This document shows, one piece after another, positions 7,295 to 24,800 of a stretch of 64,000 nucleotides of DNA. Source of the DNA: Bacteroidota bacterium. GTDB taxonomy: Bacteria; Bacteroidota; Ignavibacteria; Ignavibacteriales; Ignavibacteriaceae. A program made the translations under genes and the position numbers. The stretch lies in the NCBI GenBank assembly GCA_022564295.1, contig JADFLR010000004.1, positions 11,840 to 75,839 on the forward strand, read 5' to 3'. The notes beneath the pieces are model-generated. The model was not told the DNA's origin and made no database searches. It saw only the letters and a list, made by a program, of their open reading frames with translations. Each line of letters starts with the position of its first letter. Position 1 is the first letter of the stretch.

Positions 7295-8492
7295 TGTTCA
7301 TTTCGTTTATTGGAAAATCGGCTAATAGTACTGTACCATGATCGTGGGAAGAGTCAATGTGGAATGTACCGTTCAATCTCTCCACTCTCTCTTGCATATT
7401 TAATAAACCCATTCCTTCGGATACATACTTCTTATTTAATAGCACTGTTGGCTTAAATCCTATTCCATCATCTGATATAATTAGAGTAACACATTCATCA
7501 TCAATACTCAGATTAACAATAAACTCTTTGGCTCTAGAATGTTTGATTATATTGTTTAATGCTTCCTGTGCTACTCTATATATGCATATCTCCAAATCCT
7601 TTGATAATTTAACCTTAATATCCTTAAGATCTAAGTGCATCTTAATTCCACTTTCTATTGAAACATTCTTACACATCGAAGTAAGCACTGTCTTTAAACC
7701 TAACTCCTCTATGTTTAACGGTCGAATATTCCGGGCGATGTCTTTTATTTCCGCGAGAGTAGCATTTACTAATTCAAGGATTTCTGAAGATTCATCAGAT
7801 GACGACTTTTTAGAACTACTTGAATTGCCTTTCAATAAACCCAATTTTATAAATAATAGATTTTGACCTATTGAGTCGTGAAGCAGCCCGGCAAATCGGT
7901 CTCTTTCTTCTTCCAACACCTGTGTTAAACGAGCTGAGGAATCTCTTAGTAGTTTCTGATAAACGTGCATTTGTTCTTCATAATCTTTTTTCTCTGTTAA
8001 ATCATAAAAATAAAGTTGAGCCATCTTTAAAAGTGAAATACCGTGAATATTGATTTCATAAAACTTCTCATTAAGTTTTTTAGTAACAGTCATAGTCTTA
8101 TCGTCACTTATGAGTTGACCAATGTTAATATCAAATTCACTAGTTAAACTTGGTATTATTGAAACATTTGACGTATCTAACCCGAGCTTTTCTTTTGCCG
8201 AATTATTTAACCCGACAATATTGCCAAGAGGATCTATCTTCACTATTGGATTGGGGTCCAGCTCTGTAAATAATGCAAGTAACTTCTCTCTTTTCAGTTC
8301 AAGTTTTTCCTTCTCACTTCTGTGCTTGAGTAATAAGGGACTATAGACATAATTATATGAGATATAGAACAATGCCATTAGTACTATAAAGATAAAAACG
8401 GAAAGATAGATGGGATTGTAAACACTAAAGATCAGCTTCAGGTATTTTTCCAACTCACTAGGATTATTTAACAGAAATAATGAAGTAATCAT
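7248..8492 (-). CDS. sensor histidine kinase, HisKA_3 (NarX/LiaS/DegS-like)
   Basis: 414 aa with an N-terminal TM segment (YLSVFIFIVLMALFYISY). It has the H-box LHDSIGQNL, N-box EALNNIIKHS, and G-boxes DDGIGF and GMGLLNMQER. The 3-prime end overlaps the regulator ORF. Confidence 0.9.
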   Translation of the reverse strand: MITSLFLLNNPSELEKYLKLIFSVYNPIYLSVFIFIVLMALFYISYNYVYSPLLLKHRSEKEKLELKREKLLALFTELDPNPIVKIDPLGNIVGLNNSAKEKLGLDTSNVSIIPSLTSEFDINIGQLISDDKTMTVTKKLNEKFYEINIHGISLLKMAQLYFYDLTEKKDYEEQMHVYQKLLRDSSARLTQVLEEERDRFAGLLHDSIGQNLLFIKLGLLKGNSSSSKKSSSDESSEILELVNATLAEIKDIARNIRPLNIEELGLKTVLTSMCKNVSIESGIKMHLDLKDIKVKLSKDLEICIYRVAQEALNNIIKHSRAKEFIVNLSIDDECVTLIISDDGIGFKPTVLLNKKYVSEGMGLLNMQERVERLNGTFHIDSSHDHGTVLLADFPINEMNNENELDYKNPSSRRS

Positions 8493-8614
8493 ACGTCCAA
8501 GTATTATGTTAGATAAAAAAGAGAATTAGTGAATCCATCTTAAGAATTAGATCAGTTATAACATATAAACATACTTAAATTCACACACTAGTTAATTTTA
8601 AGCGTTAAAAATCA

Positions 8615-8631
8615 TTAGTACAAGTACTAGT
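8615..8631. promoter_or_regulatory. palindrome TTAGTACAAGTACTAGT, copy 3 of 3 (putative autoregulatory operator)
   Basis: The sequence CATTAGTACAAGTACTAGTGAAAAA lies 123 nt upstream of the kinase start. Its core is identical to the 5365 copy, including the GTGAAAA tail. Confidence 0.45.
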
Positions 8632-8710
8632 GAAAAATATATAGAATCGAATGGTTTTAATTAATTAATATAAACTAGCAGCAATTCACTTTGTCCGAAG
8701 TAAAATAATT

Positions 8711-8726
8711 TATATATATATATATA
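8711..8726. repeat. (TA)8 dinucleotide microsatellite
   Basis: TATATATATATATATA read directly from the sequence. It ends 35 nt upstream of the ATG at 8762. Confidence 0.9.
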
Positions 8727-8761
8727 AATATTCACTTTTTCAATAATAATAGGATGACCAA

Positions 8762-9154
8762 ATGTCGGTTGAATCCACACACGAAGTTGTTTCTAAATAT
8801 CTCGATTCAGATCACTATAATTTAAGTATGATGGCAGAGGATATAGTATTTACAAATATGGCAACCGGTGATGAAACACATGGGATGGAAAATCTAAAAG
8901 AAATACTCAACTACATTTATCATAAAGCCTTCGACGCAAGGACAGAATCCAAATTTCGTATTTATTCTGATTCGAATGCTGCATTCGAAGCAGATTTTGT
9001 TGGAAAACTCTTTGGTGAATTTGTCGGAGTTCCTACAATTAATAAAGAAGTTCGTGTGCCATCATGTGTTGTTTATGATTTAGGAGATGATAAAATTAAA
9101 CGAGCTAGAATATATTTTGAAATACCGGTCTTTTTTGATCAGGTAAAAAACTAA
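8762..9154 (+). CDS. NTF2/SnoaL-like (ester-cyclase-like) protein
   Basis: 130 aa. The pattern GKLFGEFVGVPTINKEVRVPSCVVYDLGDDKIKRARIYFE resembles the SnoaL-like h.GeF.G.pPTgK.v.v....v....dgKI...r.Yfd pattern. Confidence 0.55.
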   Translation: MSVESTHEVVSKYLDSDHYNLSMMAEDIVFTNMATGDETHGMENLKEILNYIYHKAFDARTESKFRIYSDSNAAFEADFVGKLFGEFVGVPTINKEVRVPSCVVYDLGDDKIKRARIYFEIPVFFDQVKN

Positions 9155-9190
9155 TATTTACACTCTCAAAAAAAAATCAAAGGAGCCAGG

Positions 9191-9982
9191 ATGAACACTT
9201 CACCAGAAAAAACAGCAGCTACAATTGATAAGGACGAATTAGAACGAAAGGTTAAGGATATGTATCGTGAGGTAGCATTAAATCCCAAAGGAGAATTTCA
9301 TTTTGAAATGGGTCGCGATCTTGCTGCAAGATTAGGTTATCTGCCAGAAGACCTTGATCGTATACCGAATGAATCGATTGAATCATTTGCAGGTGTGGGT
9401 TACTACTTCCATCTAGCAGATTTGAAAGAAGGTGAAAGGGTCATTGATTTTGGCAGCGGTGCGGGAATGGATACTTTTATTGCCGCACTAAAAGTTGGTG
9501 AAATTGGTGAAGTTGTTGGTATTGATATGACTGAAGAACAGCTTTCTAAAGCTGAAGATCTGAGAAAAAGGGCAGGGATAAATAATATTAAATATCTTAA
9601 AGGCTACCTGGTTGATGTTCCAGTTGAAGACGGAAGTTTTGATGTAGTTATTAGCAATGGTGTTGTAAATCTTGCTCCTGACAAAGGCAAAGTGTTTGAA
9701 GAAATTGCAAGAGTGTTGAAACCGGGTGGTCGCATGACAATATCAGATATTGTAACAGAAACACAACTTTCGGAATCAATTACATGCAATACAAATTTGT
9801 GGGCTGCTTGTATTGGTGGAGCGATGCAGGTGGATAATTACAGGACTGTAATTGAAAAATCAGGAATGCGTGTAGAAAAAGTAGAAGATAATTCACAATA
9901 TCAATTCATCTCCAAGAATGCACAGGGTGCAAGTAAAGAATATGGCGTAAAGAGTATTTCGTTGCTTGCAGTGAAGCAATGA
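9191..9982 (+). CDS. class I SAM-dependent methyltransferase, ArsM/UbiE-like
   Basis: 263 aa with RBS AGGAG. SAM motif I is VIDFGSGAGMD, followed by EVVGIDMTEEQL and VVISNGVVNL. The N-terminal region resembles arsenite methyltransferases, but substrate is not assignable. Confidence 0.65.
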   Translation: MNTSPEKTAATIDKDELERKVKDMYREVALNPKGEFHFEMGRDLAARLGYLPEDLDRIPNESIESFAGVGYYFHLADLKEGERVIDFGSGAGMDTFIAALKVGEIGEVVGIDMTEEQLSKAEDLRKRAGINNIKYLKGYLVDVPVEDGSFDVVISNGVVNLAPDKGKVFEEIARVLKPGGRMTISDIVTETQLSESITCNTNLWAACIGGAMQVDNYRTVIEKSGMRVEKVEDNSQYQFISKNAQGASKEYGVKSISLLAVKQ

Positions 9983-10647
9983 ACAAAAATTTTAATTGGC
10001 ATTAGTAATAAATAATAGAATCGAAGATTGACAGGTATTTTTATTGTGGTCTCAACTTAGTTTTCTAATTTGAAGCGAGAGTAATTCCAAATTATTAATA
10101 TTTCACTCACTCTTACTAGGAGTAATTATTTAAACTCGATGAACCTTCTTTGGGGTTTGCAACAAATCTAATAAATAATTTTTTTCCAAAAAATTTGCGG
10201 AACAAATAATAAATGAAATTTTATAAATTGCTAAAAATATATTTGCCCGGAGCAGGTAGATGTAGCATTTGGTGGGACATTGAAGGAATTGAGGGGGAAT
10301 AGGGAGAAACTGAAGGAATAATTTTTTTACTAGAACGACCATATTTTACAACCTTCAAACGCCATATGAGTTTCCGGGTTGAAGATTGGACGCACTGCAT
10401 AATTATTCTCTACTTTAGTGTCGGACTCTCCGCTCAATAATAAATTGCAATGACCTTCAATTTGCACGGGAGTACTAGATGGAACATATGTTACTTGTAT
10501 ATACTTTCTTCTTTACATTTTCACTTAAACCAATTGTCCCACTTATAAATTTTAGCACATTCATTAGAGCAGAATCTGCAATTATAGAGTTGCCCTGTAA
10601 ACCGTTAATAAAATTGTATTATCCTAACTTTTAAGTGATGATATTCC

Positions 10648-11751
10648 TTACCTAAGCAAAATCATCTTCCGTACTTTATTAAAACCACTGGATTCCAATC
10701 GATAAAAATATATTCCCGATGGCAGAAAATTTGCATCAAAAGTTACTTTGTACGAGCCCGCTGGTAGTTCTTCGTCCACTAATCTAAAAACTTCCTTGCC
10801 AAGTAAATCATATATTTTCAATACTGTTTGTCCTGATTCCTTCAATTCGAACCGAATAGTAGTTGTTGGGTTAAATGGGTTTGGATAATTTTGATAAAGA
10901 TTGAATTCTTCTGGGATGCCTGCAGTTTCATCGACTAATTCAACGCTAGTAATAGTTGTGGCAAGGTTTACTTGCCCACGGATTTCACCACCTGGATTTG
11001 CGGCATTATGAATGTTGAAGTAGATGTTGCCAGCTAGCAGTTCGGCAATCAATGCAGGTGTCAACGGTTCCGCATCAGTGCTTGTCCAGAGTCCAGAGGC
11101 AGTATTGCCTACAAAGTCATCTGTAATAGTACGAACAACCCCACCGTTAACTCCAACAGCCCCATTGTGGAAATGCGCCGCAGTAAAGGTCAATCCCTCT
11201 ACAGTTACACTGAATTCTAATCCTGCATCAGTAAGAGTGAGAGAGCTAGTTCCCATAGCGTTTGTAATGACAGGGGGATTTTCTTGATCTCCATCTAAGT
11301 TTGAATTAAAGCCTGTTCCTGCACTGAGGTTGACTTGCCCTCGTAATTCGCCGCCGGGATTTGCTGTAGTGTGGATGTTAAGATAGAGGTTGCCAGCTAG
11401 CAGATCGGCAATCAATTCAGGTGTTAATGGATCGGGATCAGTGCTTGTCCATATTCCGGAGGCAGTATTGCCTGTAAAATCATCTGTAATGGGACGAACA
11501 ACCCCACCGTCGACACCGATAGCCCCATTGTGGAAATGTGCAGCAGTGAAAGTCAATCCCTCCACAGTTACACTGAATTCTAATCCTGCATCAGAAAGCT
11601 TGAAAACACCAGTTCCTGTAGCACTTGTTGTAACACCCGGGTTTTCTTGGTCACCGGTTAATGTGGCTGTGAAGTGAGTTTGAGAAAAGATTGCAGAAGA
11701 AAATAGAAAAACAATCAACCATAGATCAACAAAAAATATCAATTTTTTCAT
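10648..11751 (-). CDS. tandem CHRD-domain protein with T9SS C-terminal sorting domain
   Basis: It has a signal peptide and two CHRD units each with GDQENP...AAHFHNG..GV.GGVV...NIH...NPGGE.RGQV. The C-terminal YQNYPNPFNPTTTIRF...GIYFYRLESSGFNKVRKMILLR is a Por/T9SS CTD. Confidence 0.85.
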   Translation of the reverse strand: MKKLIFFVDLWLIVFLFSSAIFSQTHFTATLTGDQENPGVTTSATGTGVFKLSDAGLEFSVTVEGLTFTAAHFHNGAIGVDGGVVRPITDDFTGNTASGIWTSTDPDPLTPELIADLLAGNLYLNIHTTANPGGELRGQVNLSAGTGFNSNLDGDQENPPVITNAMGTSSLTLTDAGLEFSVTVEGLTFTAAHFHNGAVGVNGGVVRTITDDFVGNTASGLWTSTDAEPLTPALIAELLAGNIYFNIHNAANPGGEIRGQVNLATTITSVELVDETAGIPEEFNLYQNYPNPFNPTTTIRFELKESGQTVLKIYDLLGKEVFRLVDEELPAGSYKVTFDANFLPSGIYFYRLESSGFNKVRKMILLR

Positions 11752-13470: not shown

Positions 13471-13659
13471 GTGCTAGCTCTTGCATTCTTCATAGCACTT
13501 CAAGAAAATATTTTAAGTAAAATAACGTCAATTCTGCCAGTACTTATTGCTGCATTAGGATTAATCACAAAAGTTTCAGGAATATTTTCCAAAAGCGATG
13601 TGTTAACACCTAGAATAGTATTTGACTGTATTAGCAATTACAATTTATTAACTTTTTAA
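13471..13659 (+). CDS. small hydrophobic protein (holin-like position), GTG start
   Basis: 62-aa ORF with two hydrophobic stretches (LALAFFIAL, ITSILPVLIAALGLITKV). It ends 13 nt before the amidase start. The call is positional only. Confidence 0.3.
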   Translation: MLALAFFIALQENILSKITSILPVLIAALGLITKVSGIFSKSDVLTPRIVFDCISNYNLLTF

Positions 13660-13672
13660 AAGGAGGCGTGAG

Positions 13673-14632
13673 ATGTCGCTTATCTTGAGTAAAAATTTGA
13701 CATTACCGGATGATCAATACTTTCACAATGGAAGTAAAAAAACCGGCATAGTGCTTCACCATACTGTTGGAGGAACTGCATCCTCAACATTAAATTGGTG
13801 GAAAACAGACGGACAGATGGTTGGAACAGCTTACCTGATTGGGAGGGATGGTACAGTTTACGAGGTATTCGACCCGAAAGGATGGGCATGGCAGTTTGGC
13901 TTAAAATGGCGAAGAGACGAAAAAATAAAGTTTGAAAAACGATTTATTGGTATAGAAATAGCAAGCGAGGGCGGATTAATCGAATCTGGGGGAAGCCTGT
14001 ATTGCTTCGATCGTATAAGCGATAAAACCAGGAAAAACAAAAGTGAGGCTTTTGATTACGGGAAAGACTACCGTGGTTACAGGTACTTTGATAAATACGA
14101 GACTGCACAGATCGATTCTGTAATCGAATTGGTAAACCAATTGTGTGAGACTTTTAATATTCCTAAAAATCTGCCGAAAAATTACTTAGAGTACTACGAG
14201 AAAAAACTAATTGACTTTGAGGGTATTATAGGTCACACTATGGTAAGATCAGATAAAAGCGATCCGGCTCCGGATAATAATTTTTGGCAAAGAATAATAA
14301 CTGAATGCAGTTTAACACAATTGGAAATAAACGACAAGGAAGAAAGCGAGGTAATTAAAATTAATGAAGAAGATATTAATAAGTTATTTGAACACAATAT
14401 GAAAGAATTAAATAAAATGCATGTGCCTGCAGGAAGTATGATTAAAGGGTTGATTATGGAATTGGCAAGAGATGAAAGGAACACGTTTATAAAATTGAGA
14501 AGTGCAGAAAGCGGTGGTCACATTGTTCACTATGATTTTGTTCAGGGCGATCCTGGCCTGGTGTACAGGATTGGGTTAGCGCTGGGTTTAAAACAGGTAA
14601 CGGAAGATAAACTGGAGGTGAGAAATGCTTAA
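13673..14632 (+). CDS. N-acetylmuramoyl-L-alanine amidase (Amidase_2/PGRP fold) with unknown C-terminal domain of about 110 aa
   Basis: Strong RBS AGGAGG. Motifs are GIVLHHTVGG, IGIEIASEG and IIGHTMVRSDKSDPAPD (the Zn-ligand pattern of Amidase_2). There is no signal peptide. Confidence 0.8.
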   Translation: MSLILSKNLTLPDDQYFHNGSKKTGIVLHHTVGGTASSTLNWWKTDGQMVGTAYLIGRDGTVYEVFDPKGWAWQFGLKWRRDEKIKFEKRFIGIEIASEGGLIESGGSLYCFDRISDKTRKNKSEAFDYGKDYRGYRYFDKYETAQIDSVIELVNQLCETFNIPKNLPKNYLEYYEKKLIDFEGIIGHTMVRSDKSDPAPDNNFWQRIITECSLTQLEINDKEESEVIKINEEDINKLFEHNMKELNKMHVPAGSMIKGLIMELARDERNTFIKLRSAESGGHIVHYDFVQGDPGLVYRIGLALGLKQVTEDKLEVRNA

Positions 14633-15353
14633 GAACGCTCTGCCCTGGATATTATTAGCCGTGGTTTTAGTAGTTATTGCATATCTTCTTGGAAGCAATG
14701 CCAACAGGGAAGAAATAGCACGTGTTGAAGCACAAAGGCAGGATATGAAATCTCAAAGGGATTCGATAAAGGCATTTGTGGCGCTCAAAGATACGATGCA
14801 GCAAATTCTTCAAAATAGAATTACAGAATTAGAGACAGATGCAGATAATTTGAGGGAACAGGTTAGAATATTAGAAACGGTTAGAAAAAAAGAACAGCTG
14901 GGAGTAAGAATGCTGAAAACACCCGATGATCTAAAAAATAAATTTGCATCAACGTTTCCTGAGTTACCGGAAGAAAAAATAAAGATCTTTGAAGAATATG
15001 TTAGTGAGGTAGATATTTCTTTGCAATATTTCGGTGTTCCCCTTTGGTTTAGTGAAACTTTCATTATTGATCATAACAATTCAATTAATTATGAAAAACA
15101 AAATATTAAATTGGCTTCGTTGGATACGTTAAATCTTAGAGTTATTTCCCTTCAAGATAAAGTTCTGGTATTGGAAAAAGAAAAATCGGAAGCCTATAGG
15201 ATTGGTTATGACAGCGCTTATGTTCATTATATGGAGATTAGTAAGCTATATATGAATGAATTAGAGAAACCGAGATTCGATTTGCCGCATTGGGGTGCAA
15301 TTATTGGCGGTACTGCTGTCGGGATATTAATTGGGACACAATTGAATAAATGA
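14625..15353 (+). CDS. coiled-coil protein with N- and C-terminal TM helices (spanin-like topology)
   Basis: Its ATG overlaps the amidase stop (ATGCTTAAG). The N-terminal TM is LPWILLAVVLVVIAYLLG and the C-terminal TM is WGAIIGGTAVGILIGTQL. The centre is long, heptad-rich and charged. Confidence 0.6.
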   Translation: MLKNALPWILLAVVLVVIAYLLGSNANREEIARVEAQRQDMKSQRDSIKAFVALKDTMQQILQNRITELETDADNLREQVRILETVRKKEQLGVRMLKTPDDLKNKFASTFPELPEEKIKIFEEYVSEVDISLQYFGVPLWFSETFIIDHNNSINYEKQNIKLASLDTLNLRVISLQDKVLVLEKEKSEAYRIGYDSAYVHYMEISKLYMNELEKPRFDLPHWGAIIGGTAVGILIGTQLNK

Positions 15354-15419
15354 AAATAGAACTATCTGTAATACACTGCTGGTTAATTAACAATAGGTAA
15401 TTTTTTAGGAGATAAGAAA

Positions 15420-15893
15420 ATGCTTGAACTTCCAAAACTTCGTCCTATTCCTATAAGAACTAAAAATGTTCCGCCTATAATTGCTCTATGGCGTTGGATA
15501 ACTTCAATTCGCAATTGGGAGGTTCTTGAAGATTGGAGCTATGTCTTGCCGGATGATACTAAAATATATATTCCAGAGGGATTTGTATTCGATGGAGCTT
15601 CTATCCCAAGAATCTTTTGGGCTATTCTCTCTCCGGTGGGTCTGCTTCTCACGCCCGGATTAGTTCATGACTATGCTTACCAGCACGACAAGTTATTAAG
15701 TCTTGATTCTGAAGGTAACAGAACCATTTACAAAAATAAGGCTGGGAGAGGTTACTGGGACCGGCTTTTTCGAGACGTTGCGATAGAAGTAAATGGATTT
15801 AAAATAATAAACAATATTGCATGGATAGCATTAGTTTTGTTTGGCTGGATAGACTGGAATGTTAAGAGAAGGGACGAAGTAGAAATTAGTTAA
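15420..15893 (+). CDS. DUF1353-like protein
   Basis: 157 aa. IPEGFVFDGASIPRIFW...GLVHDYAY matches my memory of the DUF1353 signature (DGAS.P...w ... HD.ly). It has a C-terminal TM segment, IAWIALVLFGWI. Confidence 0.6.
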   Translation: MLELPKLRPIPIRTKNVPPIIALWRWITSIRNWEVLEDWSYVLPDDTKIYIPEGFVFDGASIPRIFWAILSPVGLLLTPGLVHDYAYQHDKLLSLDSEGNRTIYKNKAGRGYWDRLFRDVAIEVNGFKIINNIAWIALVLFGWIDWNVKRRDEVEIS

Positions 15894-15964: not shown

Positions 15965-16237
15965 TTTCCCGATCTTGGTTTTCCAAGTATTTACGATGCA
16001 ATTGAGCAGATACATCAAGTAACTGGAAGTTATGATAATATTGCATTAGGTTCCGACTTTAATGGATTTACTGATCCGCCTGATGACTTAAAAGATTGTT
16101 CGATATTTCCTGATCTCGTAAAATTTTTTCTGGACAAGGATATAACGAATGCAGACCTTAAAAATATTACTTCAGGAAATATACTGAGAGTTTTAGAAGA
16201 AGGTTGGGGGAAGATAGAGAGGATATATTTCGGTTAA
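15965..16237 (+). pseudogene. 3-prime remnant of a membrane dipeptidase (peptidase M19) gene
   Basis: Own translation gives FPDLGFPSIYDAIEQIHQVTGSYDNIALGSDFNGFTDPPDDLKDCSIFPDLVKFFLDKDITNADLKNITSGNILRVLEEGWGKIERIYFG-stop. The GSDF.G and gNilRvl motifs are the M19 C-terminus. A stop lies directly upstream and there is no start codon. Confidence 0.7.
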
Positions 16238-16300: not shown

Positions 16301-17692
16301 ATGTTAGTAATAATTAGTGATCTTCATCTAACTGATGAATCGACCGCAAATAATGTGAAAAGAGAGGTCTTCAAAGAAATTCTGAAAAGCAGAATAATGA
16401 ATAATGCCGATGATAATAAAGCGAAAGAGTTACGGATTGTCTTACTCGGAGATATACTGGATCTTGTTAGGACTGATTATTGGTTAAGAAAGAAAATAAC
16501 AATGGAAAATAGACCATGGGGAGGTAAGCTCGATCCAGAAACAGCAATGAATAATGATTTTAATAAAATAGAAACTCAGTTTAATGAAATACTAGATGAT
16601 GTACTAAATACTAAATCCTGTCGGGCATTGATGAAAATGTTGAATGATATCGCAGAAGATACAGGTATATATACAAAGGTCTCTTACGTGGTTGGAAATC
16701 ATGATAGAGTTCTTTGGAATTTTAATTCTCTTCAGGATAAAATCAGAATGCGGTTGAAGAAAGTAACACAAAATAATGCTAATCCTGATAGAGTAGAATT
16801 TCTTCAAGGTTTGTATGCACCTGAGTATGGTGTAAAAGCCAGACATGGTCATGAATGGGATGAGATATGCCACGGCTGGGAATTTTATAATGAGGTACTT
16901 AATGAGGATAATCCTATAAAACGTTTTGATCCAAAAGTATATAAAGTAATGGCAATAGGAGAGGTGGCTACAGCTGAGCTGATGGCAGGGCTTATTCACC
17001 GGATTAAGAACAACAATGTTTGTAAGAATGATAAAGAGTTTATAAATAGAATAAAAGATCTGAACAATATAAGACCAATGATGGATGTATTCCGCTGGCT
17101 CGATTGGTATATGAAAAAAAATATCTCTGAGAAATATAAAAATGCTATATACTCTGCATTAAAAGAATCAATTAAGTCATTGTTATCTTCTTCCCTTGCA
17201 AAGAAATGGGATGATATGACTATCGATACAATTATCACAGGAGATTTGGTTGATAGATTGCAATTATTAGATAAAGTGCTGGCAGGTTCAGACTATGAGA
17301 GTATTAAGAGTGCTATGCTTAAACTGTTGCCCGTAATAGATATCTTTAAGGGCTCGGGTGATGCATTTTCAGAAGGAGCTGAAAAAGAATGGGACTGGAT
17401 GAATGAGAATGATCTGAAAGATATTCAGTATATAGTTAACGGGCATACTCACGTGCCTAAACACGAATATTTTACCGGGAATGTTAACGGCAAAGTGAGA
17501 ATGTATATCAATACCGGTACATACTTACCTTTGATTCAAAGAACCAAAAACAGGAAGGGATTTGCTGACGCTTATCAAATGACGATGGCTTTCTTCTATA
17601 GAAAAGATGAAGACAGATCGGGAAGAGGCCGCAATCCTGAAGAACCGACTATGGACCTTTGGAATGGTATAAAAAGAAAAAAATATGTATAA
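16301..17692 (+). CDS. calcineurin-like metallophosphoesterase, LpxH-like motif set, enlarged (463 aa)
   Basis: All five MPE motifs occur in order: SDLHLTD, LLGDILDL, VVGNHD, RHGHEWD and NGHTHVP. There are large insertions between motifs and no signal peptide or TM segment. Confidence 0.8.
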   Translation: MLVIISDLHLTDESTANNVKREVFKEILKSRIMNNADDNKAKELRIVLLGDILDLVRTDYWLRKKITMENRPWGGKLDPETAMNNDFNKIETQFNEILDDVLNTKSCRALMKMLNDIAEDTGIYTKVSYVVGNHDRVLWNFNSLQDKIRMRLKKVTQNNANPDRVEFLQGLYAPEYGVKARHGHEWDEICHGWEFYNEVLNEDNPIKRFDPKVYKVMAIGEVATAELMAGLIHRIKNNNVCKNDKEFINRIKDLNNIRPMMDVFRWLDWYMKKNISEKYKNAIYSALKESIKSLLSSSLAKKWDDMTIDTIITGDLVDRLQLLDKVLAGSDYESIKSAMLKLLPVIDIFKGSGDAFSEGAEKEWDWMNENDLKDIQYIVNGHTHVPKHEYFTGNVNGKVRMYINTGTYLPLIQRTKNRKGFADAYQMTMAFFYRKDEDRSGRGRNPEEPTMDLWNGIKRKKYV

Positions 17693-17812
17693 ATCAAAAG
17701 AGTTTTATCATTTAAAAATCCTTTTCCAAATGGAGTTGGCTTCTGATTTTAATGGCATTGATACTCAAATGTTACTCTCATCTGAACAATCATTTAAAGA
17801 AGGAGGGAAATT

Positions 17813-19372
17813 ATGCATATCAAGAAAAGTTTATTAATAAATCTTGGGGTTACAAATCCTCGGGCAGATCGTCATTTACCATCCTTAAACACAGCTCTTA
17901 AAAAGCATAAAGTTGATACACCATTGCGTGTAGCACATTTTCTCGCACAGCTATTGCATGAGTCTGCACTATTTAAATATGATGAGGAAAATTTAAACTA
18001 TTCTGCCAAAGGATTATTAAAAGTGTTTGGTAAATACTTCTCAAGTTTAGAAATAGCAAATAGGTACGCACGAATGCCGGAGAAGATCGCCAATATAGTT
18101 TATGGTAATCGGATGGGCAATGGAGATGAAGCGAGTGGCGAGGGCTATAAATACAGGGGTAGAGGATTAATACAACTTACGGGTAAAAATAATTATCGTA
18201 AATTTTCAAAATGGATCAATGAAGATGTGGTTAGCAGTCCCGACTTGGTCGCAAGTAAATATGCCGTACATTCAGCGGTGTACTACTGGATTGCTAACGA
18301 TCTGAACTCACTTGCAGATATTGACGATGTGAAGAAAGTAACTAAGAGAATTAATGGGGGATATAATGGTCTCGAGCATCGGATTGAACTACTGGACAAG
18401 ATTAAAAAATCTTTAAGAAAAGATCTACCATCTCCATCATTAGAGAAAATTACACACAAAGTGAATGTTTCAAAATTGAATCTCCGGAATAAACCGAGGG
18501 TTGCACCTTCAACTCTAATTGGTTCATTAAGTGAGGGAACTGCGGTTATGAAAGTAGCTGATTCGAATGGATGGGTAAAGATTCGTACGGTTCTTAATGA
18601 TCAGCTAGTTGAAGGATTTGTTGCCGGTAGATTTCTACACGAAATTAAACAAAAACGTATACTAACAAGTTTAGTAAAAACTCCAATTGATTTTAATATT
18701 CCAGTTGTTCATTTGAAAGAAAAGCGTTCTGATATTAAAAGACTTAATGATTGGGGACGGGCATTTCCATTAGGTGAAACAAATATGCCAAAAAGATTCG
18801 GTACATCACCAGAAACCAAGAGCCGGAAGCTAATTGAAATAATAAAGTACTTGGATTGTGAGAAAACTTCTCACAAACGATATGGACCTAAAACCATTGA
18901 TACATATTGTAATATCTATGCATATGATTATTGTTACCTTGCCGGCGTTTATATTCCAAGGGTTTGGTGGAAAGAACAAGCCATTCACGATATTAAAAAT
19001 AGGAAAAGGGTTTCAATCGAATATGATAGAACAGTTGAAGAATTAAGTGCTAATATGCTTAATGATTGGTTTGGGGATTATGGTGTATTATTCGGTTGGA
19101 AGCGGGTAATTAATCTTGAGGTTTTACAGGCTGCTGCAAACAATGGTGAAGTATGTTTAATTATTGCTAAGCATAAGAACTCAAACAGTTCCGGTCATAT
19201 TGCTGCTGTAGTGCCAGAGCATGATGGATATAAAGCAACTCGTAAAGTCACTGGGGAAATTGCAATTCCATTACAATCTCAGGCTGGAAGAAATAACTAT
19301 CGTTTTACTACTAAATCAAAATGGTGGCAGATGAATCAATTTCAAAACTTTAGCTTTTGGCGGTATTCCTGA
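17813..19372 (+). CDS. three-module peptidoglycan hydrolase: GH19 lysozyme/chitinase-like + SH3b + C-terminal Cys/His (papain/NlpC-like) domain
   Basis: RBS AGGAGGG. The GH19 module has VAHFLAQLLHESALFKYDEE and YRGRGLIQLTGKNNY. The SH3b module has LNLRNKPRVAPSTLIGSLSEGTAVMKVADSNGWVKIR...EGFVAGRFL. The C-terminal half has TYCNIYAYDYCY and SSGHIAAVVPE. There is no signal peptide. Confidence 0.75.
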   Translation: MHIKKSLLINLGVTNPRADRHLPSLNTALKKHKVDTPLRVAHFLAQLLHESALFKYDEENLNYSAKGLLKVFGKYFSSLEIANRYARMPEKIANIVYGNRMGNGDEASGEGYKYRGRGLIQLTGKNNYRKFSKWINEDVVSSPDLVASKYAVHSAVYYWIANDLNSLADIDDVKKVTKRINGGYNGLEHRIELLDKIKKSLRKDLPSPSLEKITHKVNVSKLNLRNKPRVAPSTLIGSLSEGTAVMKVADSNGWVKIRTVLNDQLVEGFVAGRFLHEIKQKRILTSLVKTPIDFNIPVVHLKEKRSDIKRLNDWGRAFPLGETNMPKRFGTSPETKSRKLIEIIKYLDCEKTSHKRYGPKTIDTYCNIYAYDYCYLAGVYIPRVWWKEQAIHDIKNRKRVSIEYDRTVEELSANMLNDWFGDYGVLFGWKRVINLEVLQAAANNGEVCLIIAKHKNSNSSGHIAAVVPEHDGYKATRKVTGEIAIPLQSQAGRNNYRFTTKSKWWQMNQFQNFSFWRYS

Positions 19373-19542
19373 ACTGCAAACAAATAGGAAGTTTTTGCGA
19401 AAAGAAAAATATTGGACCGGTTATTAACACTGGGGAATTTTTGCATAATAAAGGATTGAACTTGAACTGAAGGTGACTTGCTTAATATGCAAAAAAATAA
19501 CTTACAGATTTAATTCATTAATAAATTTAAGGAGGAATAATC

Positions 19543-20598
19543 ATGCTTCAATGGTTTGATACCCTTATGGGTCTTGTAGTTATTCTTTTAGCTGTAAGTT
19601 TAGTAATTATGATTCTCAACCAGATCATAGTGGCGTTACTGAATTTACGAGGAAACAATCTGAAGAAAGGCATAAAGTTATTACTTGAAAATAGTGATGT
19701 TGATCTCAAGGTTTATGCGGAAAAGATCAGCAGCAAAGTACTTAGTCACCCGTTAATCTCCGATAAATGGCGAAAGTCTGGTTATTGGAGTTTAGCAACT
19801 ACAATACGTCCAAATGAACTAATCAAGATTCTTAATGTCATAGCAGATTCAGGGGAAGATGATTGGCAGGTAAAGCTTAAGAAGTGTCTATCAGAGATTA
19901 CTGACAATATAGAAAACTGGTTTGACAACATAATGGACAGAGTGACTCAATCCTTTGTTAGACAGACCCGCTTCTGGACTATCATATTCTCATTAATTGT
20001 AGCTTTCGCACTTCATCTTGATGCCTTTAGACTTTTCGAACAAATTTCTAATGACGCAGAATTGCGTGCAAGCCTGATAGCTAGTTCTGACACGATTCTA
20101 AAACAGACAGAGGAAGTGATAGGGAAAGCAAGTTTAATTCCAATGGTATATAAAAAAGCTATCCTACAACTTAAACTACAAGATACGACAGGTACGGCGA
20201 GTGAATTAAGACCTCCTCCAGCTTTTGTGAGTCGTGAGGATGGAGAGAATTGGCTACGAGAACAATTGGCTGGTAATGAACAAATTGAATTGTTAATCAA
20301 TCAGTATGGAAAACTCATAGATTCAAACCTTACAAATTCTGTTGAAAGGCTGAGAGACAGGGCTATCTCAATTAAGAGTGAATTAGATAAAACCAAACTC
20401 CAGCTAATTCCTCAGCCTTATCCCGGATGGAATTATTCTCCAGGTGACATCCACTTTTGGGGAGTTTTAGTTATGGCTGCATTTTTGAGTTTGGGTGCAC
20501 CATTTTGGTTTAAAGCATTAAAGACAATGAGTGCTCTAAGACCTATATTGGCAGAAAAAGAAGAGAAGGAACGGAAAAATCATAAGGAAAAATTATAA
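19543..20598 (+). CDS. membrane protein (3 TM), unknown function
   Basis: RBS AGGAGG. The TM segments are LMGLVVILLAVSLVIMILNQIIVALL, FWTIIFSLIVAFALHL and FWGVLVMAAFLSLGAPFWF. It has a long helical soluble segment and a Lys/Glu-rich tail. Confidence 0.65.
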   Translation: MLQWFDTLMGLVVILLAVSLVIMILNQIIVALLNLRGNNLKKGIKLLLENSDVDLKVYAEKISSKVLSHPLISDKWRKSGYWSLATTIRPNELIKILNVIADSGEDDWQVKLKKCLSEITDNIENWFDNIMDRVTQSFVRQTRFWTIIFSLIVAFALHLDAFRLFEQISNDAELRASLIASSDTILKQTEEVIGKASLIPMVYKKAILQLKLQDTTGTASELRPPPAFVSREDGENWLREQLAGNEQIELLINQYGKLIDSNLTNSVERLRDRAISIKSELDKTKLQLIPQPYPGWNYSPGDIHFWGVLVMAAFLSLGAPFWFKALKTMSALRPILAEKEEKERKNHKEKL

Positions 20599-20875: not shown

Positions 20876-21239
20876 GACTATTCCAACCTTCTCCTCTTCA
20901 ACAACGGTTCAATTTCAGGATCCTGTCCGCGGAAGCGTTTGTATAGTTCCATTGAATCGTCTGTACCACCGGAAGCTAATATGTACTTGCGGTACTTTGC
21001 AGCAAAATCTTTATTATACACATCGCCGGTTTGGACAAATGCATTAAATGCATCTGCATCGAGCACTTCAGCCCAGATGTAGCTGTAATAACCTGATGAA
21101 TATCCTCCCGAATAAATATGATTGAAATATGTACTCCTGTAACGAGGTAAAATTTCAGGGATCAACCCAATCCTATCCATCGATTCATTTTCAAACTTTA
21201 TTGCATCACATTCAACCGCCTATGTTATAGTATGCCAGT
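20876..21239 (-). pseudogene. displaced, diverged 3-prime fragment of the dcp (M3 peptidase) gene
   Basis: This 364 bp is collinear with 22699..23062. The 100-aa ORF at 20878..21180 differs from the Dcp C-terminus at 8 of 100 residues. An in-frame TAG (HWHTIT-stop-AVE) lies upstream, and homology stops at 21239. Confidence 0.85.
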
Positions 21240-21375
21240 GTTATCCATTTATCATACAATCACTAAATTATGGCGCCAATAAATTCTTAGATAAAACTAC
21301 TTACTCTTTAATGCTCTGCTCTTTTAGTGCATTATATTAATCCGGTTTTTTTTGAAGTTTAACAGTTTATTCTTA

Positions 21376-21412
21376 TTTTTCACCAATTAGTGAAACACCA
21401 TTTGGTGAAAAA
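21376..21412. repeat. imperfect hairpin TTTTTCACCAATTAGTG-AAA-CACCATTTGGTGAAAAA (two CACC-N-GTG boxes)
   Basis: Read directly, with 12 of 14 stem positions pairing. A near-copy occurs at 22566..22602 on the other side of the ATPase ORF. Confidence 0.7.
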
Positions 21413-21422
21413 TAAATATGGA

Positions 21423-22565
21423 ATGAATATGGACATTAAAACAAATCCCTTTGCTTTTGGAAAAATAGTTAAAGGAAAGCAATTTTTTAACCGCAAGCAG
21501 GAAATAACAGAATTAATGGTTGAGATTAATAATCATCAAAACATAATTCTGTATGCACCAAGGCGCTATGGCAAAACCTCGTTAGTATTAAAAACATTTG
21601 AAGACCTAAGTAAAAAACAAAGGAATTTTGAATGGCTGTACATAGATTTCTTTCAGGTCAATTCCATTGATAAATTTATTTCTATTATGTCGAATGAATA
21701 TGCAGCACATTCTAAATTGTCTTTAGAGAAGTTGCTGAACTCACTCAAAAATATATTAAAAGGAATTACTCCTGCTATAACTTTAGATAAGGATGGTAAC
21801 CCCAAAATTGAGGTTTCAATTTCACCGGGCAATCGGGATAGTGTATTTGAAGATGTAATGAAGTTACCGCAAAAATTAGTTAGGGACGGAAAATTGGTCG
21901 CAGTTTTCTTCGATGAATTTCAGGAAGTGAATAATCTTAATGGATTTGAATTCCAAAAAATATTACGGTCCGTAATTCAACATCAAAATAAAGTTTGCTA
22001 TATATTTTGTGGTTCGAAGCATCATCTTTTCCAGAATATCTTTAACGACCCGAACAACCCATTATTCAAAGCCGGAAAAACGAAATACCTGAATGTTATA
22101 CCTGAAAAAGAATATTCATCTTTTATCTATAAACATTTTATTAAAATAAAAAATGATTTTACGAAAGATGATGCAAAATCTATCTATCACTTAGCTGGCT
22201 CAATACCTTATAACATTCAATTACTATGTAGTGAGATTTATAATCTCGTGTTGATTAATAAAAATCTGGTAATAAATGAAATAATAAATCAGGGTTACAA
22301 CAATGTACTAAATAGCAAGAATGAGGAATATATTATTTTATATGAAAATATGAGCAAGTCTGTGCGGCTAGCCATAGAAATGGTTATTAAAAATGATGGA
22401 AAACATCTATTTAATAATGAACTGTTATCTGATTTTAGAGTAGCTCCCTCAACTTTGAAAAAGTCATTGGATAAATTGATCCGGGATGGGATATTATTTA
22501 GAGAAAATAAAAACTATTTATTCCAGGATATATTTTTTAAGAAATGGCTTGAAATCCGGATATAA
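21423..22565 (+). CDS. orphan ATPase of the Arch_ATPase (PF01637-like) type with a C-terminal winged-helix-like region
   Basis: Walker A is APRRYGKTSL and Walker B is VAVFFDEFQE. The N-terminal NPFAFGKIVKGKQFFNRKQEITEL is typical of this family. I prefer the ATG at 21423 over the GTG at 21390, which lies inside the hairpin. Confidence 0.7.
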   Translation: MNMDIKTNPFAFGKIVKGKQFFNRKQEITELMVEINNHQNIILYAPRRYGKTSLVLKTFEDLSKKQRNFEWLYIDFFQVNSIDKFISIMSNEYAAHSKLSLEKLLNSLKNILKGITPAITLDKDGNPKIEVSISPGNRDSVFEDVMKLPQKLVRDGKLVAVFFDEFQEVNNLNGFEFQKILRSVIQHQNKVCYIFCGSKHHLFQNIFNDPNNPLFKAGKTKYLNVIPEKEYSSFIYKHFIKIKNDFTKDDAKSIYHLAGSIPYNIQLLCSEIYNLVLINKNLVINEIINQGYNNVLNSKNEEYIILYENMSKSVRLAIEMVIKNDGKHLFNNELLSDFRVAPSTLKKSLDKLIRDGILFRENKNYLFQDIFFKKWLEIRI

Positions 22566-22602
22566 TTTTTCACCATTTAGTGTTTCACCAAATAGTGAAA
22601 AA
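22566..22602. repeat. imperfect hairpin TTTTTCACCATTTAGTG-TTT-CACCAAATAGTGAAAAA (terminator-like, flanked by T and A runs)
   Basis: It starts 1 nt after the ATPase stop and has the same box architecture as 21376..21412. Confidence 0.7.
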
Positions 22603-22700
22603 TATATTATGGCGGCGTTTCAATCTCCCGTAATCCCATAATAAAAATGAGGTGATTATAATTATTTCAAAAAGGATTAAAATCTTGTTGAAGTATTTAG

Positions 22701-24800
22701 CTATTCCAACCCTCGCCTCTTCAACAACGGCTCAATGCTCGGATCCTCTCCGCGGAATCGTTTGTAGAGTTCCATTGAATCGTCTGTACCACCAGAAGCT
22801 AATATGTACTTGCGGTACTTTGCAGCAAATTCTTTATTATACACGTCGCCGGTTTGTACAAATGCATTAAATGCATCTGCATCGAGCACTTCAGCCCAGA
22901 TGTAGCTGTAATAACCTGATGAATAACTTCCTGAAAATATGTGATTGAAATAAGAACTTCGGTAACGAGGTAAAATTTCCGGGATCAACCCAATCCTACC
23001 CATCGATTCATTTTCAAATTTAATTGCATCATATTCAACCGGATCGGTTATAGTATGCCAGTCCATATCAAGATATGAAGCAGCAAGGTATTCTAAAGTT
23101 TCAAAGCCCTGGTTGAATAAGCTTGCATTTTGAATTTTATCAACCAATTCTTTTGGTATGACTTCTCCTGTTTCATAATGCTTCGCATAATATTTTAGTA
23201 CATCAGGATGCATCGACCAGTTTTCCATTACTTGCGATGGGAATTCAACAAAATCTCTTGGAGTATCTGTACCTGAAATTAATTCGTACGTGCAGTCTGA
23301 AAGTAAACCATGCACAGCATGACCAAATTCGTGGAATAAAGTATGTACTTCATCCAGGCTTAGCAATGCAGGTTTATCTCCGGTTGGTTTTGAAAAATTA
23401 CCGACGTTGTAAATAATCGGATAGATCATTTTCCCATCTTTTTTATACTGTTTCTGGAAAACATCCATCCAGGCTCCAGCACGTTTACTTTCCCTTGGGA
23501 AGTAATCGATATATAATATTCCAATATGAGAGCCGTCAGCTTCCTTCACTTCAAAGGTTTTAACATCGGGATGGTATTTTGAGATGTCATCTCTTTCTTC
23601 AAATTTAATACCCCATAAGCGTGTGGCTAACCCGAAAACGCCATCGATAACATTCTCTACCTGGAAGTATGGTCTTAATTCCTCTTCATCCATATTGTAT
23701 TTTGCTTTCTTCAATTTTTCAGCGTAATACCACCAACCCCAGGGTTGAAGTTCGAAACTGTTTCCTTCTGCATTAATGATCTCCTGCATTTCTACTCTTT
23801 CCTGAATTGATCTTTTAAGAGCTGGAGTCCACAATTTATCTAACAAGGCATAAACATTATCAGGATTGGATGCCATCTGCTCTTCAAGAACATAATGTGC
23901 ATGTGTTTCATAACCAAGAAGCCTAGCTCTCTTCAATCTGAGCATCGCCATTCTCGAAAGAATCTTTTTATTGTCGATCTCATTATTGTTATCACCTTTT
24001 AGGAAATAGGCACTGTAGATTTTTTTCCTCAAATCTCTTTTGGCTGAGTATTGCAAAAAAGGGATCATGCTTGGTTTATGAATAGTGAAAACCCACTTAC
24101 CGGTATAACCTTTGTCTATAGCGGTTTCGGCGGCACCGGAGATTACGTTTTCAGGCAAGCCTTCAAGATCATCTTTGTTATCAATAACCAATTCAAATGT
24201 GTTTGTTTCCTTTAAAACGTTTTCACCAAACTGGACTGAAAGTACAGACAATTCCTCATTTATTTTTCTGAATTCTTCTTTCGATTCATCTTTAAGATTT
24301 GCACCTCCGCGGACAAATCCTTTATAATATTTATCCAACAATATTTTCTGTTCTGTATTTAATTCCAGACTTTCTCTCTTTTCATAAATTTCTTTCACTC
24401 TATTGAATAATTCTTCATTCAGATTAATATCATCAATGTGGTTGGAAAGCATAGGTGAAACTTCTTTAGAGATAACCTTCATTTGTTCATTGCTCATGGA
24501 TTCATTCATAGCGGAAAAAACTCGTCTGACTCTTTTTAGTAAAGTGCCGCTGTAGTCCAATGCTTCAATTGTGTTAGCAAATGTAGCTTCTGCATAGTTC
24601 TTAGCAATCTTATCAATCTCCTTGTTATGTATTTTAATAGCCTTTTCGAACGCAGGCAAATAATGTTCTGTTTTAATTTTATCGAAAGGAGGGGTTTCAA
24701 AGAGAGTATCCCACTTTGCTAATAATGGATTTGTTTCTTCCGTACTGCACGAAGTAAATATTAAAGCTCCGGCAAATAGTAACATAATTAGCCTCTTCAT
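22701..24800 (-). CDS. dcp: M3-family metallopeptidase, peptidyl-dipeptidase Dcp-like lipoprotein
   Basis: 699 aa with a lipoprotein signal (MKRLIMLLFAGALIFTSC) and the zinc motif HEFGHAVH. Length and C-terminal motifs are typical of Dcp/oligopeptidase A. Confidence 0.85.
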   Translation of the reverse strand: MKRLIMLLFAGALIFTSCSTEETNPLLAKWDTLFETPPFDKIKTEHYLPAFEKAIKIHNKEIDKIAKNYAEATFANTIEALDYSGTLLKRVRRVFSAMNESMSNEQMKVISKEVSPMLSNHIDDINLNEELFNRVKEIYEKRESLELNTEQKILLDKYYKGFVRGGANLKDESKEEFRKINEELSVLSVQFGENVLKETNTFELVIDNKDDLEGLPENVISGAAETAIDKGYTGKWVFTIHKPSMIPFLQYSAKRDLRKKIYSAYFLKGDNNNEIDNKKILSRMAMLRLKRARLLGYETHAHYVLEEQMASNPDNVYALLDKLWTPALKRSIQERVEMQEIINAEGNSFELQPWGWWYYAEKLKKAKYNMDEEELRPYFQVENVIDGVFGLATRLWGIKFEERDDISKYHPDVKTFEVKEADGSHIGILYIDYFPRESKRAGAWMDVFQKQYKKDGKMIYPIIYNVGNFSKPTGDKPALLSLDEVHTLFHEFGHAVHGLLSDCTYELISGTDTPRDFVEFPSQVMENWSMHPDVLKYYAKHYETGEVIPKELVDKIQNASLFNQGFETLEYLAASYLDMDWHTITDPVEYDAIKFENESMGRIGLIPEILPRYRSSYFNHIFSGSYSSGYYSYIWAEVLDADAFNAFVQTGDVYNKEFAAKYRKYILASGGTDDSMELYKRFRGEDPSIEPLLKRRGLE

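Follow-up and report, generated by a model that had tools for sequence, protein, structure and literature searches.

A predicted murein hydrolase encoded beside an unannotated three-helix membrane protein in an Ignavibacteriaceae genome: a possible lysis module

Introduction

Typical phage holins are small proteins, usually <150 amino acids (aa) long, with one to four transmembrane (TM) helices, and they are encoded next to the endolysin. Endolysins can themselves be modular, as in the CHAP-Amidase_2-SH3b enzymes of staphylococcal phages, in which two catalytic domains are joined to SH3b. Chromosomal derivatives of lysis cassettes are used for type 10 secretion, e.g. the cassette that releases the Tc toxin of Yersinia entomophaga (PMC10847048). 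Here, we analyze three consecutive genes in a stretch of 64,000 nucleotides (nt) of a Bacteroidota bacterium (Ignavibacteriaceae), which corresponds to positions 11,840-75,839 of the forward strand of contig JADFLR010000004.1 (assembly GCA_022564295.1) and is hereafter named the window. The genes are predicted to encode a metallophosphoesterase (gene 1), an endolysin-type murein hydrolase (gene 2), and an inner-membrane protein with three TM helices (gene 3), which we tentatively read as a holin-endolysin-like lysis module.

As in lysis cassettes and type 10 secretion, the gene for a murein hydrolase without signal peptide adjoins, on a chromosome and without phage structural genes, the gene for a multi-TM protein. 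The window also holds, as lysis cassettes do, a spanin-like coiled-coil gene and a second signal-less amidase, although both lie 3-6 kb upstream (the spanin-like gene 4 kb upstream) in a separate block. Unlike in these cassettes, the membrane protein is 351 aa long with large soluble loops, has no PHROG holin kinship, and is absent from phage collections. In addition, the string includes a phosphoesterase, and no secreted cargo was identified.

Conflict systems offer another precedent. In those described by Kaur, Burroughs, Iyer, and Aravind 2020 (PMC7159879), calcineurin-type phosphodiesterases stand beside 2TM SLATT pore effectors, and lysozyme and papain-like murein peptidases serve as effectors. 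A term search of that article returned no mention of a 3-TM protein. The effectors that we find around the gene-3 family (TIR, SIR2, patatin, caspase, alpha/beta hydrolase, and calcineurin-type phosphoesterase) match the repertoire described there, whereas the window has none of the NTPase, vWA-MoxR, or GTPase cores, and no effector-associated adaptor domain. There is also a likeness to Pycsar/CBASS, because in one related operon (L063, see below) a gene-1-family phosphoesterase and an Amidase_2-SH3 protein are found with a true 2TM effector, which takes the place of the 3-TM protein. By contrast, gene 3 matches no PADLOC or Pfam effector model, no cyclase is present, and none of the three proteins of the trio matches the PADLOC v2 defense models. 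The original prediction, made from the sequence of the window alone, knew of no described system with this composition, but there are two close precedents: holin-endolysin cassettes, together with type 10 secretion, and the conflict systems that Kaur et al. describe.

Results

Organization of the three-gene string

The three genes and the signals around them are as follows.

16301-17692, plus strand: gene 1, predicted metallophosphoesterase, 463 aa (open reading frame (ORF) list)
17801-17806, plus strand: AGGAGG ribosome-binding site of gene 2, 7 nt ahead of the ATG (sequence read)
17813-19372, plus strand: gene 2, predicted endolysin-type murein hydrolase, 519 aa (ORF list)
19417-19433, plus strand: weak hairpin resembling a terminator, located between genes 2 and 3, with a stem of 5 bp and a T-rich tail after it (consensus scan)
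19530-19535, plus strand: AGGAGG ribosome-binding site of gene 3, ATG 7 nt further on (sequence read)
19543-20598, plus strand: gene 3, predicted 3-TM inner-membrane protein, 351 aa (ORF list)

The three plus-strand ORFs, their sizes and motifs, and the strong AGGAGG sites of the last two, all of which had been reported in the original prediction, were confirmed from the ORF list and the sequence. Reading the sequence before the start of gene 1 revealed no ribosome-binding site comparable to those of genes 2 and 3. The intergenic gaps measure 120 nt (genes 1-2) and 170 nt (genes 2-3), and the hairpin in the latter is no evidence of function. Homologues number >1,392 for gene 1, 346 for the C-terminal domain of gene 2 alone, and at least 284 for gene 3, and an independent 3.3-kb metagenome contig (L094) carries the same three-gene string with 99% identity. 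Because of these large families and the second copy of the string, the ORFs are not chance ORFs. Moreover, the gene-3 protein is identical to one on a 190-kb contig of a metagenome-assembled genome (MAG) labelled Bacteroidetes bacterium. The original observation was confirmed in all these points, and so were the three TM helices of gene 3 (see below).

It had also been proposed that none of the proteins has a signal peptide. This holds for genes 1 and 2, in which hydropathy shows no N-terminal hydrophobic segment and hence no predicted signal peptide. Lacking signal peptides, the products of genes 1 and 2 would require a membrane partner for access to the wall.

Gene 2 is a predicted endolysin-type hydrolase with two catalytic modules

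Gene 2 was proposed to combine a GH19 module, an SH3b module, and a papain/NlpC-type Cys/His domain, and searches of Pfam and the PDB support this composition.

17846-18430, plus strand: GH19 glycosidase module, aa ~12-206 (PF00182 and solved GH19 endolysins)
18458-18649, plus strand: SH3b wall-binding module, aa ~216-279 (PF08239)
18710-19369, plus strand: C-terminal papain-fold Cys/His module, aa ~300-519, with Cys366, His462, and Glu469 (family alignment, AlphaFold 2 (AF2) model, and Foldseek)

The GH19 module scores 35.7 bits against PF00182 (cut-off 25.5) and matches solved GH19 endolysins in the PDB with E values ranging from 1e-36 to 1e-26 (9eoi, 1e-36; 4ok7, 2e-26; and also 9ms6), and gene 2 matches PHROG 181 ("endolysin") with an E value of 2e-77. 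Its catalytic-type Glu motifs, HES from residue 49 and EENL from residue 58, are aligned with the glutamates of 9eoi. The SH3b module scores 25.8 bits against PF08239 (SH3_3), slightly below the cut-off of 27, and many homologues carry a precomputed PF08239 match.

The last ~220 residues, which include TYCNIYAYD (from residue 364) and SGHIAAVVPE (from residue 460), match no Pfam and no NCBIfam family. The corresponding family has 346 members, most of them ~300 aa long and composed of SH3 plus this same domain, and is found in Pseudomonas, Algoriphagus, Methyloprofundus, Acidobacteria, and others. The conservation of the C-terminal Cys and His, on which the original assignment depended, was borne out, since Cys, His, and Glu are invariant in 30 members of the family (C82, H178, and E185 of the query, i.e. 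C366, H462, and E469 of the full-length protein). In the AF2 model of the domain (predicted local distance difference test (pLDDT) of 91), the Cys lies at the N terminus of a helix and the His in a strand. The top 17 Foldseek matches in the PDB are all Tse1/Tae1 (probability 0.99-1.0, target TM-score 0.59-0.71, E values of 3e-4 to 2e-2), and the BFVD library of viral structures gave weak matches to CHAP and NlpC/P60.

Tse1/Tae1, a murein amidase of the Pseudomonas aeruginosa type VI secretion system (T6SS), thus shares with gene 2 a papain/NlpC-P60-like fold (4fge, 4eob, and 7tvh; Foldseek probability 1.0, target TM-score ~0.7), including a catalytic-type Cys at a helix N terminus and a His in a strand. 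In contrast, sequence identity is 14-16%, the domain of gene 2 is longer (~220 residues versus ~150) and comes joined to SH3b and GH19 modules, neither a T6SS context nor a Tsi-like immunity gene is found in the window, and the family of gene 2 occurs in viral contigs as well. At this identity, and with no match in Pfam or NCBIfam, we found no sequence-level membership in the Tae1 family proper. The model and the fold matches suggest that the C-terminal module is a Tse1/Tae1-like Cys-His amidase or endopeptidase.

All three module types of gene 2 also occur in phage contigs. The C-terminal domain is present on 17 IMG/VR contigs, chiefly as single-domain proteins of ~210-220 aa, and in three of these (L174, L177, and L183) its gene directly follows a 3-TM ORF (~150-167 aa) and a 1-TM ORF (~200 aa), the order of a lysis cassette. 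The fusion of GH19, SH3b, and Tae1-like modules is rare, although not unique, in 1.84 billion representative proteins. One protein (P0363, 534 aa) aligns with gene 2 end to end, two others (P0361 and P0362) have two SH3 copies, and a fourth (P0366) has the modules in permuted order; none of the four has a signal peptide. A split copy of the fusion is found at locus L090. Like other modular endolysins, gene 2 would unite two bond specificities with an SH3b wall-binding module in a protein without signal peptide, but here the modules are GH19, SH3b, and Tae1-like and the host is a diderm (Bacteroidota/Ignavibacteria type). Taken together, these features indicate that gene 2 encodes a signal-less murein hydrolase of endolysin type with two predicted catalytic modules.

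The plasmid contexts of SH3 plus Tae1-like proteins were uninformative. In Pseudomonas spp., such a protein belongs to a conserved cluster (L087-L089, 3088-8903) that consists of a 367-aa multi-TM protein on the opposite strand, a 650-aa HExxH protein, a 480-aa protein with a metallo-beta-lactamase fold, whose N terminus resembles LmuA/Avs1a models, and the 300-aa SH3 plus Tae1-like hydrolase. These genes could represent a further combination of a wall hydrolase with a membrane protein and a metallohydrolase.

Gene 3 defines an unannotated 3-TM family

The most interesting element of the locus is the 3-TM family. Hydropathy analysis identifies three hydrophobic segments in gene 3 (aa ~7-33, 144-165, and 303-326), in agreement with the three TM helices counted in the original prediction. 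From hydropathy and charge, we infer that the loop at 34-143 and the K/R-rich tail are cytoplasmic, whereas the loop at 166-302 is periplasmic. The predicted cytoplasmic loop of ~110 residues is conserved in the family, and the motifs LRGxNL, HPLISD, WFDxxMDRxxQxF, LIPxPYP, and GAPFWF are strongly conserved. Not one of the 284 homologues identified has a Pfam domain, and a scan of metagenomes yielded >538 confirmed matches. Gene 3 itself matches nothing in Pfam, PADLOC, PHROGs, or NCBIfam, and has no relative of known structure. Part of the description of a holin fits, i.e. the three TM segments and the adjoining endolysin-type gene. Membership in a phage holin family was nevertheless rejected on the grounds of size, of the missing PHROG match, and of the lack of any relative in INPHARED, IMG/VR, or plasmids. 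Despite this, gene 3 may work like a holin.

A Pfam census of 123 same-strand ORFs within three genes of gene-3-family members gave the following counts for the commonest families, which are raw and not phylogeny-corrected.

DUF6519: 9 ORFs
TPR-S: 5 ORFs
TIR: 5 ORFs
MAP3K_TRAF_bd: 3 ORFs
Patatin: 3 ORFs
SIR2: 3 ORFs
Metallophos: 3 ORFs
DUF900: 2 ORFs

Caspase and Amidase_2-SH3 hydrolases are further neighbors. DUF6519 is eBAP5, the tail-fiber anchor of extracellular contractile injection systems (PMC12923769). Up to 11 of 82 loci have a member of the DUF6519 neighbor cluster directly upstream of, and in the same orientation as, the gene-3-family gene, and in several metagenome loci (L113, L119, L122-L124, L142, L143, and others) the gene-3-family gene comes last, after Baseplate_J-like and DUF6519 genes. 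This position resembles that of CisA, which docks the cytoplasmic contractile injection system of Streptomyces at the membrane (PMC12237407).

Gene 1 belongs to a large family of predicted metallophosphoesterases

The five phosphoesterase motifs noted originally are present in gene 1, starting at residues 6 (SDLHL), 50 (GDILD), 132 (GNHD), 181 (RHGHEWD), and 381 (GHTH), so that all five motifs of the calcineurin-like superfamily (DxH, GD, GNH[D/E], H, and GHxH) are found. The metal ligands (D7, H9, D51, N133, H134, H182, H382, and H384) are invariant across 30 homologues, which share 43-62% identity with the gene-1 protein. The score against PF00149 is 22.0 bits, with a cut-off of 21.5. In the AF2 model (pLDDT 83.8), a helical insert of ~190 residues dominates, which explains why Foldseek finds in the PDB only weak and generic matches to SMPDL3A, Mre11/SbcD, and the polymerase delta B subunit (E value ~1e-2, TM-score 0.25-0.3). 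The family comprises >1,392 proteins of ~450 aa, chiefly in Gemmatimonadales, Ignavibacteria, Bacteroidota, Verrucomicrobiota, and Cloacimonadota, with distant members in Bacillaceae and Myxococcota, and some MAGs have two or three copies. Gene 1 thus appears to encode a cytoplasmic protein with an intact predicted metallophosphoesterase site, from a large, uncharacterized, and sporadic family.

The resemblance to LpxH seen in the original prediction did not hold up. LpxH is the automatic JGI annotation of many homologues, a label backed by none of our tests. An NCBIfam scan (E ≤0.01) returned no family of any kind, a profile of 30 family members matched no LpxH chain in the PDB at E values up to 1, and LpxH is absent from the top 50 Foldseek matches in the PDB. 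Although LpxH also is a metallophosphoesterase with an inserted helical region, nothing beyond the superfamily was detected in sequence or fold, and gene 1 (463 aa) is twice the size of the LpxH type, which has a core of ~240 residues plus a lid.

Neighbor clustering at 84 genome loci identified no conserved neighbor of the gene-1 family. The only recurrent one is an M19 dipeptidase, which forms an upstream cluster in eight loci and recurs in three as a Pfam match in a census of 64 downstream ORFs. Proteins encoded directly downstream have two or more TM segments in 13 of 59 cases, which we estimate to be near background, and we draw no claim from this.

Parts of the trio recur together in other lineages

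The three genes had been taken as one set. As an orthologous trio they are confined to this species, but a gene-3-family member is found just downstream of the gene-1 family in 5 of the 84 loci, in at least three lineages. Phosphoesterase and 3-TM protein are adjacent in two of these (L003 and L053), and in three Gemmatimonadales loci (L009, L061, and L067) one small membrane-protein ORF intervenes. We estimate informally that chance placement of two sporadically distributed families would yield far fewer such pairs. Shorter phosphoesterases occur near the gene-3 family at two more loci (L130 and L172). In two cases, an apparent pairing was rejected: the 351-aa ORF that follows the phosphoesterase in L001 is equal in length to gene 3, yet unrelated, and the Metallophos-nSTAND protein upstream in L003 fails to match the gene-1 family profile.

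SH3-bearing wall hydrolases also occur near the 3-TM family. In L092, a 3-TM protein (TM350) is followed by an ORF of 450 aa and then by Amidase_2-SH3. This ORF (448 aa) was ruled out as a phosphoesterase, and it has no match in the PDB or Pfam. The P0251 contig (JGI 3300075153) has, in order, TM350, a 383-aa ORF, a 455-aa Metallophos protein (a Pfam label only, not an assignment to the gene-1 family), a 377-aa ORF, a caspase, a 290-aa ORF, a TPR protein, and Amidase_2-SH3. The 3-TM proteins of both loci are 65-67% identical to gene 3. Both loci are framed by MarR-TM350 and Amidase_2-SH3, with a variable middle of one ORF in the former and six genes in the latter, which suggests that they are syntenic, with a variable cargo cassette in between. 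A third locus (L104) reads TM287, TPR-S, patatin, and then Amidase_2-SH3-GH19. Judging from these gene orders, the gene-3 family lies near predicted SH3-bearing wall hydrolases in two other lineages.

A similar theme is seen with other parts in the L063 operon (7001-10864) of a Candidatus Kapaibacterium MAG (JAPLFL010000112.1). It starts with a gene-1-family phosphoesterase, 36% identical to that of the window, followed by a 4-TM protein of 208 aa, an Amidase_2+SH3 protein (275 aa), a 96-aa ORF, and a 2TM effector that matches the PADLOC models Effector 2TM (E 6e-30) and PycTM (E 6e-23). Intergenic gaps are 5-109 nt, and there is no cyclase in the stretch fetched. The L063 operon and the P0251 contig thus appear to be analogous trios with non-homologous parts. 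As a whole, the original interpretation of the trio as an envelope-directed set is partly supported.

The trio lies in a mosaic region

The regions on both sides of the trio show signs of rearrangement.

13471-15893, plus strand: phage-type, lysis-cassette-like block, outside the trio (ORFs, Pfam, PHROGs, and hydropathy)
15971-16213, plus strand: remnant of a gene for a peptidase M19 (membrane dipeptidase), reduced to the last ~91 codons of its 3' end and lying immediately before gene 1 (tblastn)

In a tblastn search, residues 365-455 of the M19 protein of L004 match 15971-16213 (40% identity, E 7e-16), and residues 1-364 are absent from the window. As an intact M19 gene occupies the position of the remnant directly upstream of the phosphoesterase in L004 and L005, M19 and the phosphoesterase represent the ancestral backbone, and the upstream block was therefore inserted later, truncating the M19 gene. 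The genes of this block resemble phage genes. They are an ORF of 62 aa that contains two hydrophobic stretches, a gene for an Amidase_2 protein without signal peptide (13673-14632), a gene for a 242-aa coiled-coil protein with a TM segment at each end and weak similarity to Rz spanins (14625-15353), which overlaps the Amidase_2 gene by 8 nt, and a DUF1353 gene (15420-15893). No phage structural genes are found near the block, and there are no prophage structural, injection-system, or T6SS genes in the window.

Downstream, the 3' end of a peptidase M3 (dcp-like) gene is present twice, in the form of a 362-bp direct repeat (20878-21239 and 22701-23062, 90.9% identity). Between the two copies is an ATPase_2/winged helix-turn-helix gene (21390-22565) with a weak match to the PADLOC model PDC-S01, flanked by inverted repeats of ~40 bp (21374-21413 and 22565-22604). 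The ATPase gene with its repeats has the appearance of a small insertion that brought along a replacement for the gene end.

Possible functions of the trio

Genes 2 and 3 likely form a functional pair. The best reading of the trio, to which we would give somewhat less than an even chance, is a lysis module that resembles holin and endolysin, to which the phosphoesterase would be an optional addition. Gene 3 would open or control a lesion in the inner membrane, or dock the gene-2 enzyme there, whereupon the hydrolase would reach the murein and the cell would lyse. The logic of holin and endolysin would thus be reused as a chromosomal module for programmed lysis or abortive infection. Gene 1, which comes from the older chromosomal backbone, would be a facultative accessory at most and perhaps hydrolyzes a nucleotide-type signal that gates the membrane protein, a role suggested by the L063 operon and by what the literature predicts for enzymes of calcineurin type. 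Domain identities, intact active-site motifs, missing export signals, and recurrent neighborhoods were observed, whereas a lesion in the membrane, cell lysis, and a part played by gene 1 are inferred. This reading is favored by the endolysin type of gene 2, which is signal-less, by the lysis-cassette-like positions of its C-terminal domain in viral contigs, by the recurrence of the gene-3 family beside TIR, TPR-S, SIR2, patatin, Metallophos, DUF900, DUF6519, and SH3-bearing wall hydrolases, by its pairing with the gene-1 family at 5 of 84 loci, by the L063 operon, and by the precedents of Kaur et al.

Several observations weigh against it. The genes are parted by the gaps of 120 and 170 nt and by the weak hairpin, gene 3 far exceeds the size of typical holins, and no sensor or NTPase core is found in the same operon within the window. 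The orthologous trio was seen in the window and in L094 only, both from this species, and the GH19 gene is at 0 of 84 other phosphoesterase loci. Conversely, SH3 plus Tae1-like proteins mostly have no gene-3 relative nearby (L087, L090, L091, L199, and L200). Apart from M19, the neighbors of the gene-1 family at the 84 loci, and in a Pfam census of 64 downstream ORFs, are mostly housekeeping genes, e.g. LepA and aminotransferases. The gene-3 family is absent from 50,697 phage genomes (INPHARED), from 2.9 million IMG/VR viral contigs, and from plasmid collections. Neighboring ORFs in the fetched loci were called crudely, by taking the longest ORF, an approach that gives noisy results in GC-rich genomes, and many metagenome loci are short. 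Finally, the M19 remnant, the phage-like block, and the duplicated peptidase M3 gene end make the locus a mosaic, and the adjacency of the trio could be an accident of rearrangement.

Chance adjacency of this sort, i.e. a stand-alone backbone phosphoesterase, a leftover or domesticated phage endolysin, and an unrelated 3-TM protein without joint function, is a serious rival, although on balance we find it rather unlikely. In addition to the late insertion upstream, the repeats just downstream, and the separate phage-like lysis block, it would account for the lack of conservation of the trio, for the different neighbors of the closest gene-1 homologues (57-62% identity), and for the strong ribosome-binding sites that genes 2 and 3 each possess after gaps of 120-170 nt. 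It does not sit well with the pairing of phosphoesterase and 3-TM protein at 5 of 84 loci, with the SH3-bearing wall hydrolases near the 3-TM family in two other lineages, or with L063, which repeats the theme with non-homologous parts. Instead of making a lesion, the 3-TM protein might be a CisA-like membrane adaptor that holds cytoplasmic partners at the inner membrane. Such partners, whether machines or enzymes, could be the baseplates of contractile injection systems, effectors of the TIR, patatin, or caspase type, or here the hydrolase and the phosphoesterase. The DUF6519 genes directly upstream of the 3-TM gene, its place at the end of Baseplate_J-like/DUF6519 operons, and its conserved cytoplasmic loop are consistent with this. 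However, CisA crosses the membrane with only one helix and shares no homology with gene 3, so that the analogy is one of position only, the 64 kb contain no injection-system genes, and an adaptor alone would not carry a folded 519-aa enzyme across the membrane. We consider a pure adaptor to be distinctly unlikely.

Two further explanations start from the individual enzymes. If the Tae1-like hydrolase was delivered to rivals via a T6SS or an extracellular injection system, gene 3 could be its immunity or export partner. The structural match to a T6SS effector, the linkage of the 3-TM family to injection-system tail-fiber genes elsewhere, and the predicted periplasmic loop of gene 3 can be read in this way, but the window encodes neither a T6SS nor an injection system, identity to Tse1 is low, and in viral contigs the domain is found in lysis-cassette-like positions. 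Moreover, SH3 plus Tae1-like proteins of Pseudomonas, Algoriphagus, Azospirillum, Hymenobacter, and L090 have no adjoining gene-3 relative, and gene 3 is therefore not the immunity protein that belongs to them; the Tai immunity proteins known so far are of small size and periplasmic. We regard an interbacterial toxin as very unlikely. Still more improbable, in our view, is an LpxH-like pyrophosphatase that would break down envelope precursors linked to nucleotides at the same time as the hydrolase cleaves the wall. The intact motifs, the JGI name of many homologues, and the helical insert, which recalls the lid of LpxH, speak for it. Against it are the negative family, profile, and fold searches, the doubled size, and the sporadic distribution of the family, sometimes with paralogues in one genome, which is an ill fit to a housekeeping step of lipid A synthesis.

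If, as in the lysis module that we prefer, genes 2 and 3 cooperate, this would be a lysis device outside phages, built on a large membrane protein unrelated to known holins. The gene-3 family would then join three settings that are now studied apart, namely chromosomal lysis cassettes, effector-rich conflict islands (TIR, SIR2, patatin, and caspase), and contractile injection systems. It would provide a testable handle on how signal-less effectors gain access to the envelope in rarely cultured diderms, as well as a first functional hypothesis for two families, the ~450-aa phosphoesterases (>1,392) and the SH3 plus Tae1-like hydrolases (346). If the genes are chance neighbors, the locus is a mosaic with a leftover endolysin and nothing more. 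A more far-reaching version of the lysis module, which we think unlikely, is that the gene-3 family is an undescribed and widespread "death gate" in the inner membrane that would let cytoplasmic degradative effectors (signal-less murein hydrolases, phosphoesterases, TIR, SIR2, patatin, and caspases) reach the envelope or membrane, and whose gene could also end contractile-injection baseplate operons. The trio of the window and L063 would be two versions of one module for abortive infection or altruistic lysis, each combining a phosphoesterase with a wall hydrolase that bears SH3 and with a membrane effector, and the phosphoesterase would set the threshold by hydrolyzing a nucleotide signal.

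Other features of the window

The other genes of the window are those of an ordinary chromosome: formiminotransferase, tricorn protease, vWA proteins, asd, menaquinone genes, and a type IIG restriction-modification enzyme. The gene for the latter (Eco57I/MmeI-like, 1,206 aa) lies in the region 46612-54000 and is followed by two ORFs (50323-52590 and 53048-53965) that have no Pfam match, in a stretch with a GC content of 27-28% versus ~34% elsewhere. This region may be a small defense islet. On the minus strand, 10648-11751 encodes a 367-aa protein sorted by the type IX secretion system, with an internal tandem duplication of ~329 bp (10964-11292 and 11327-11655, 81% identity).

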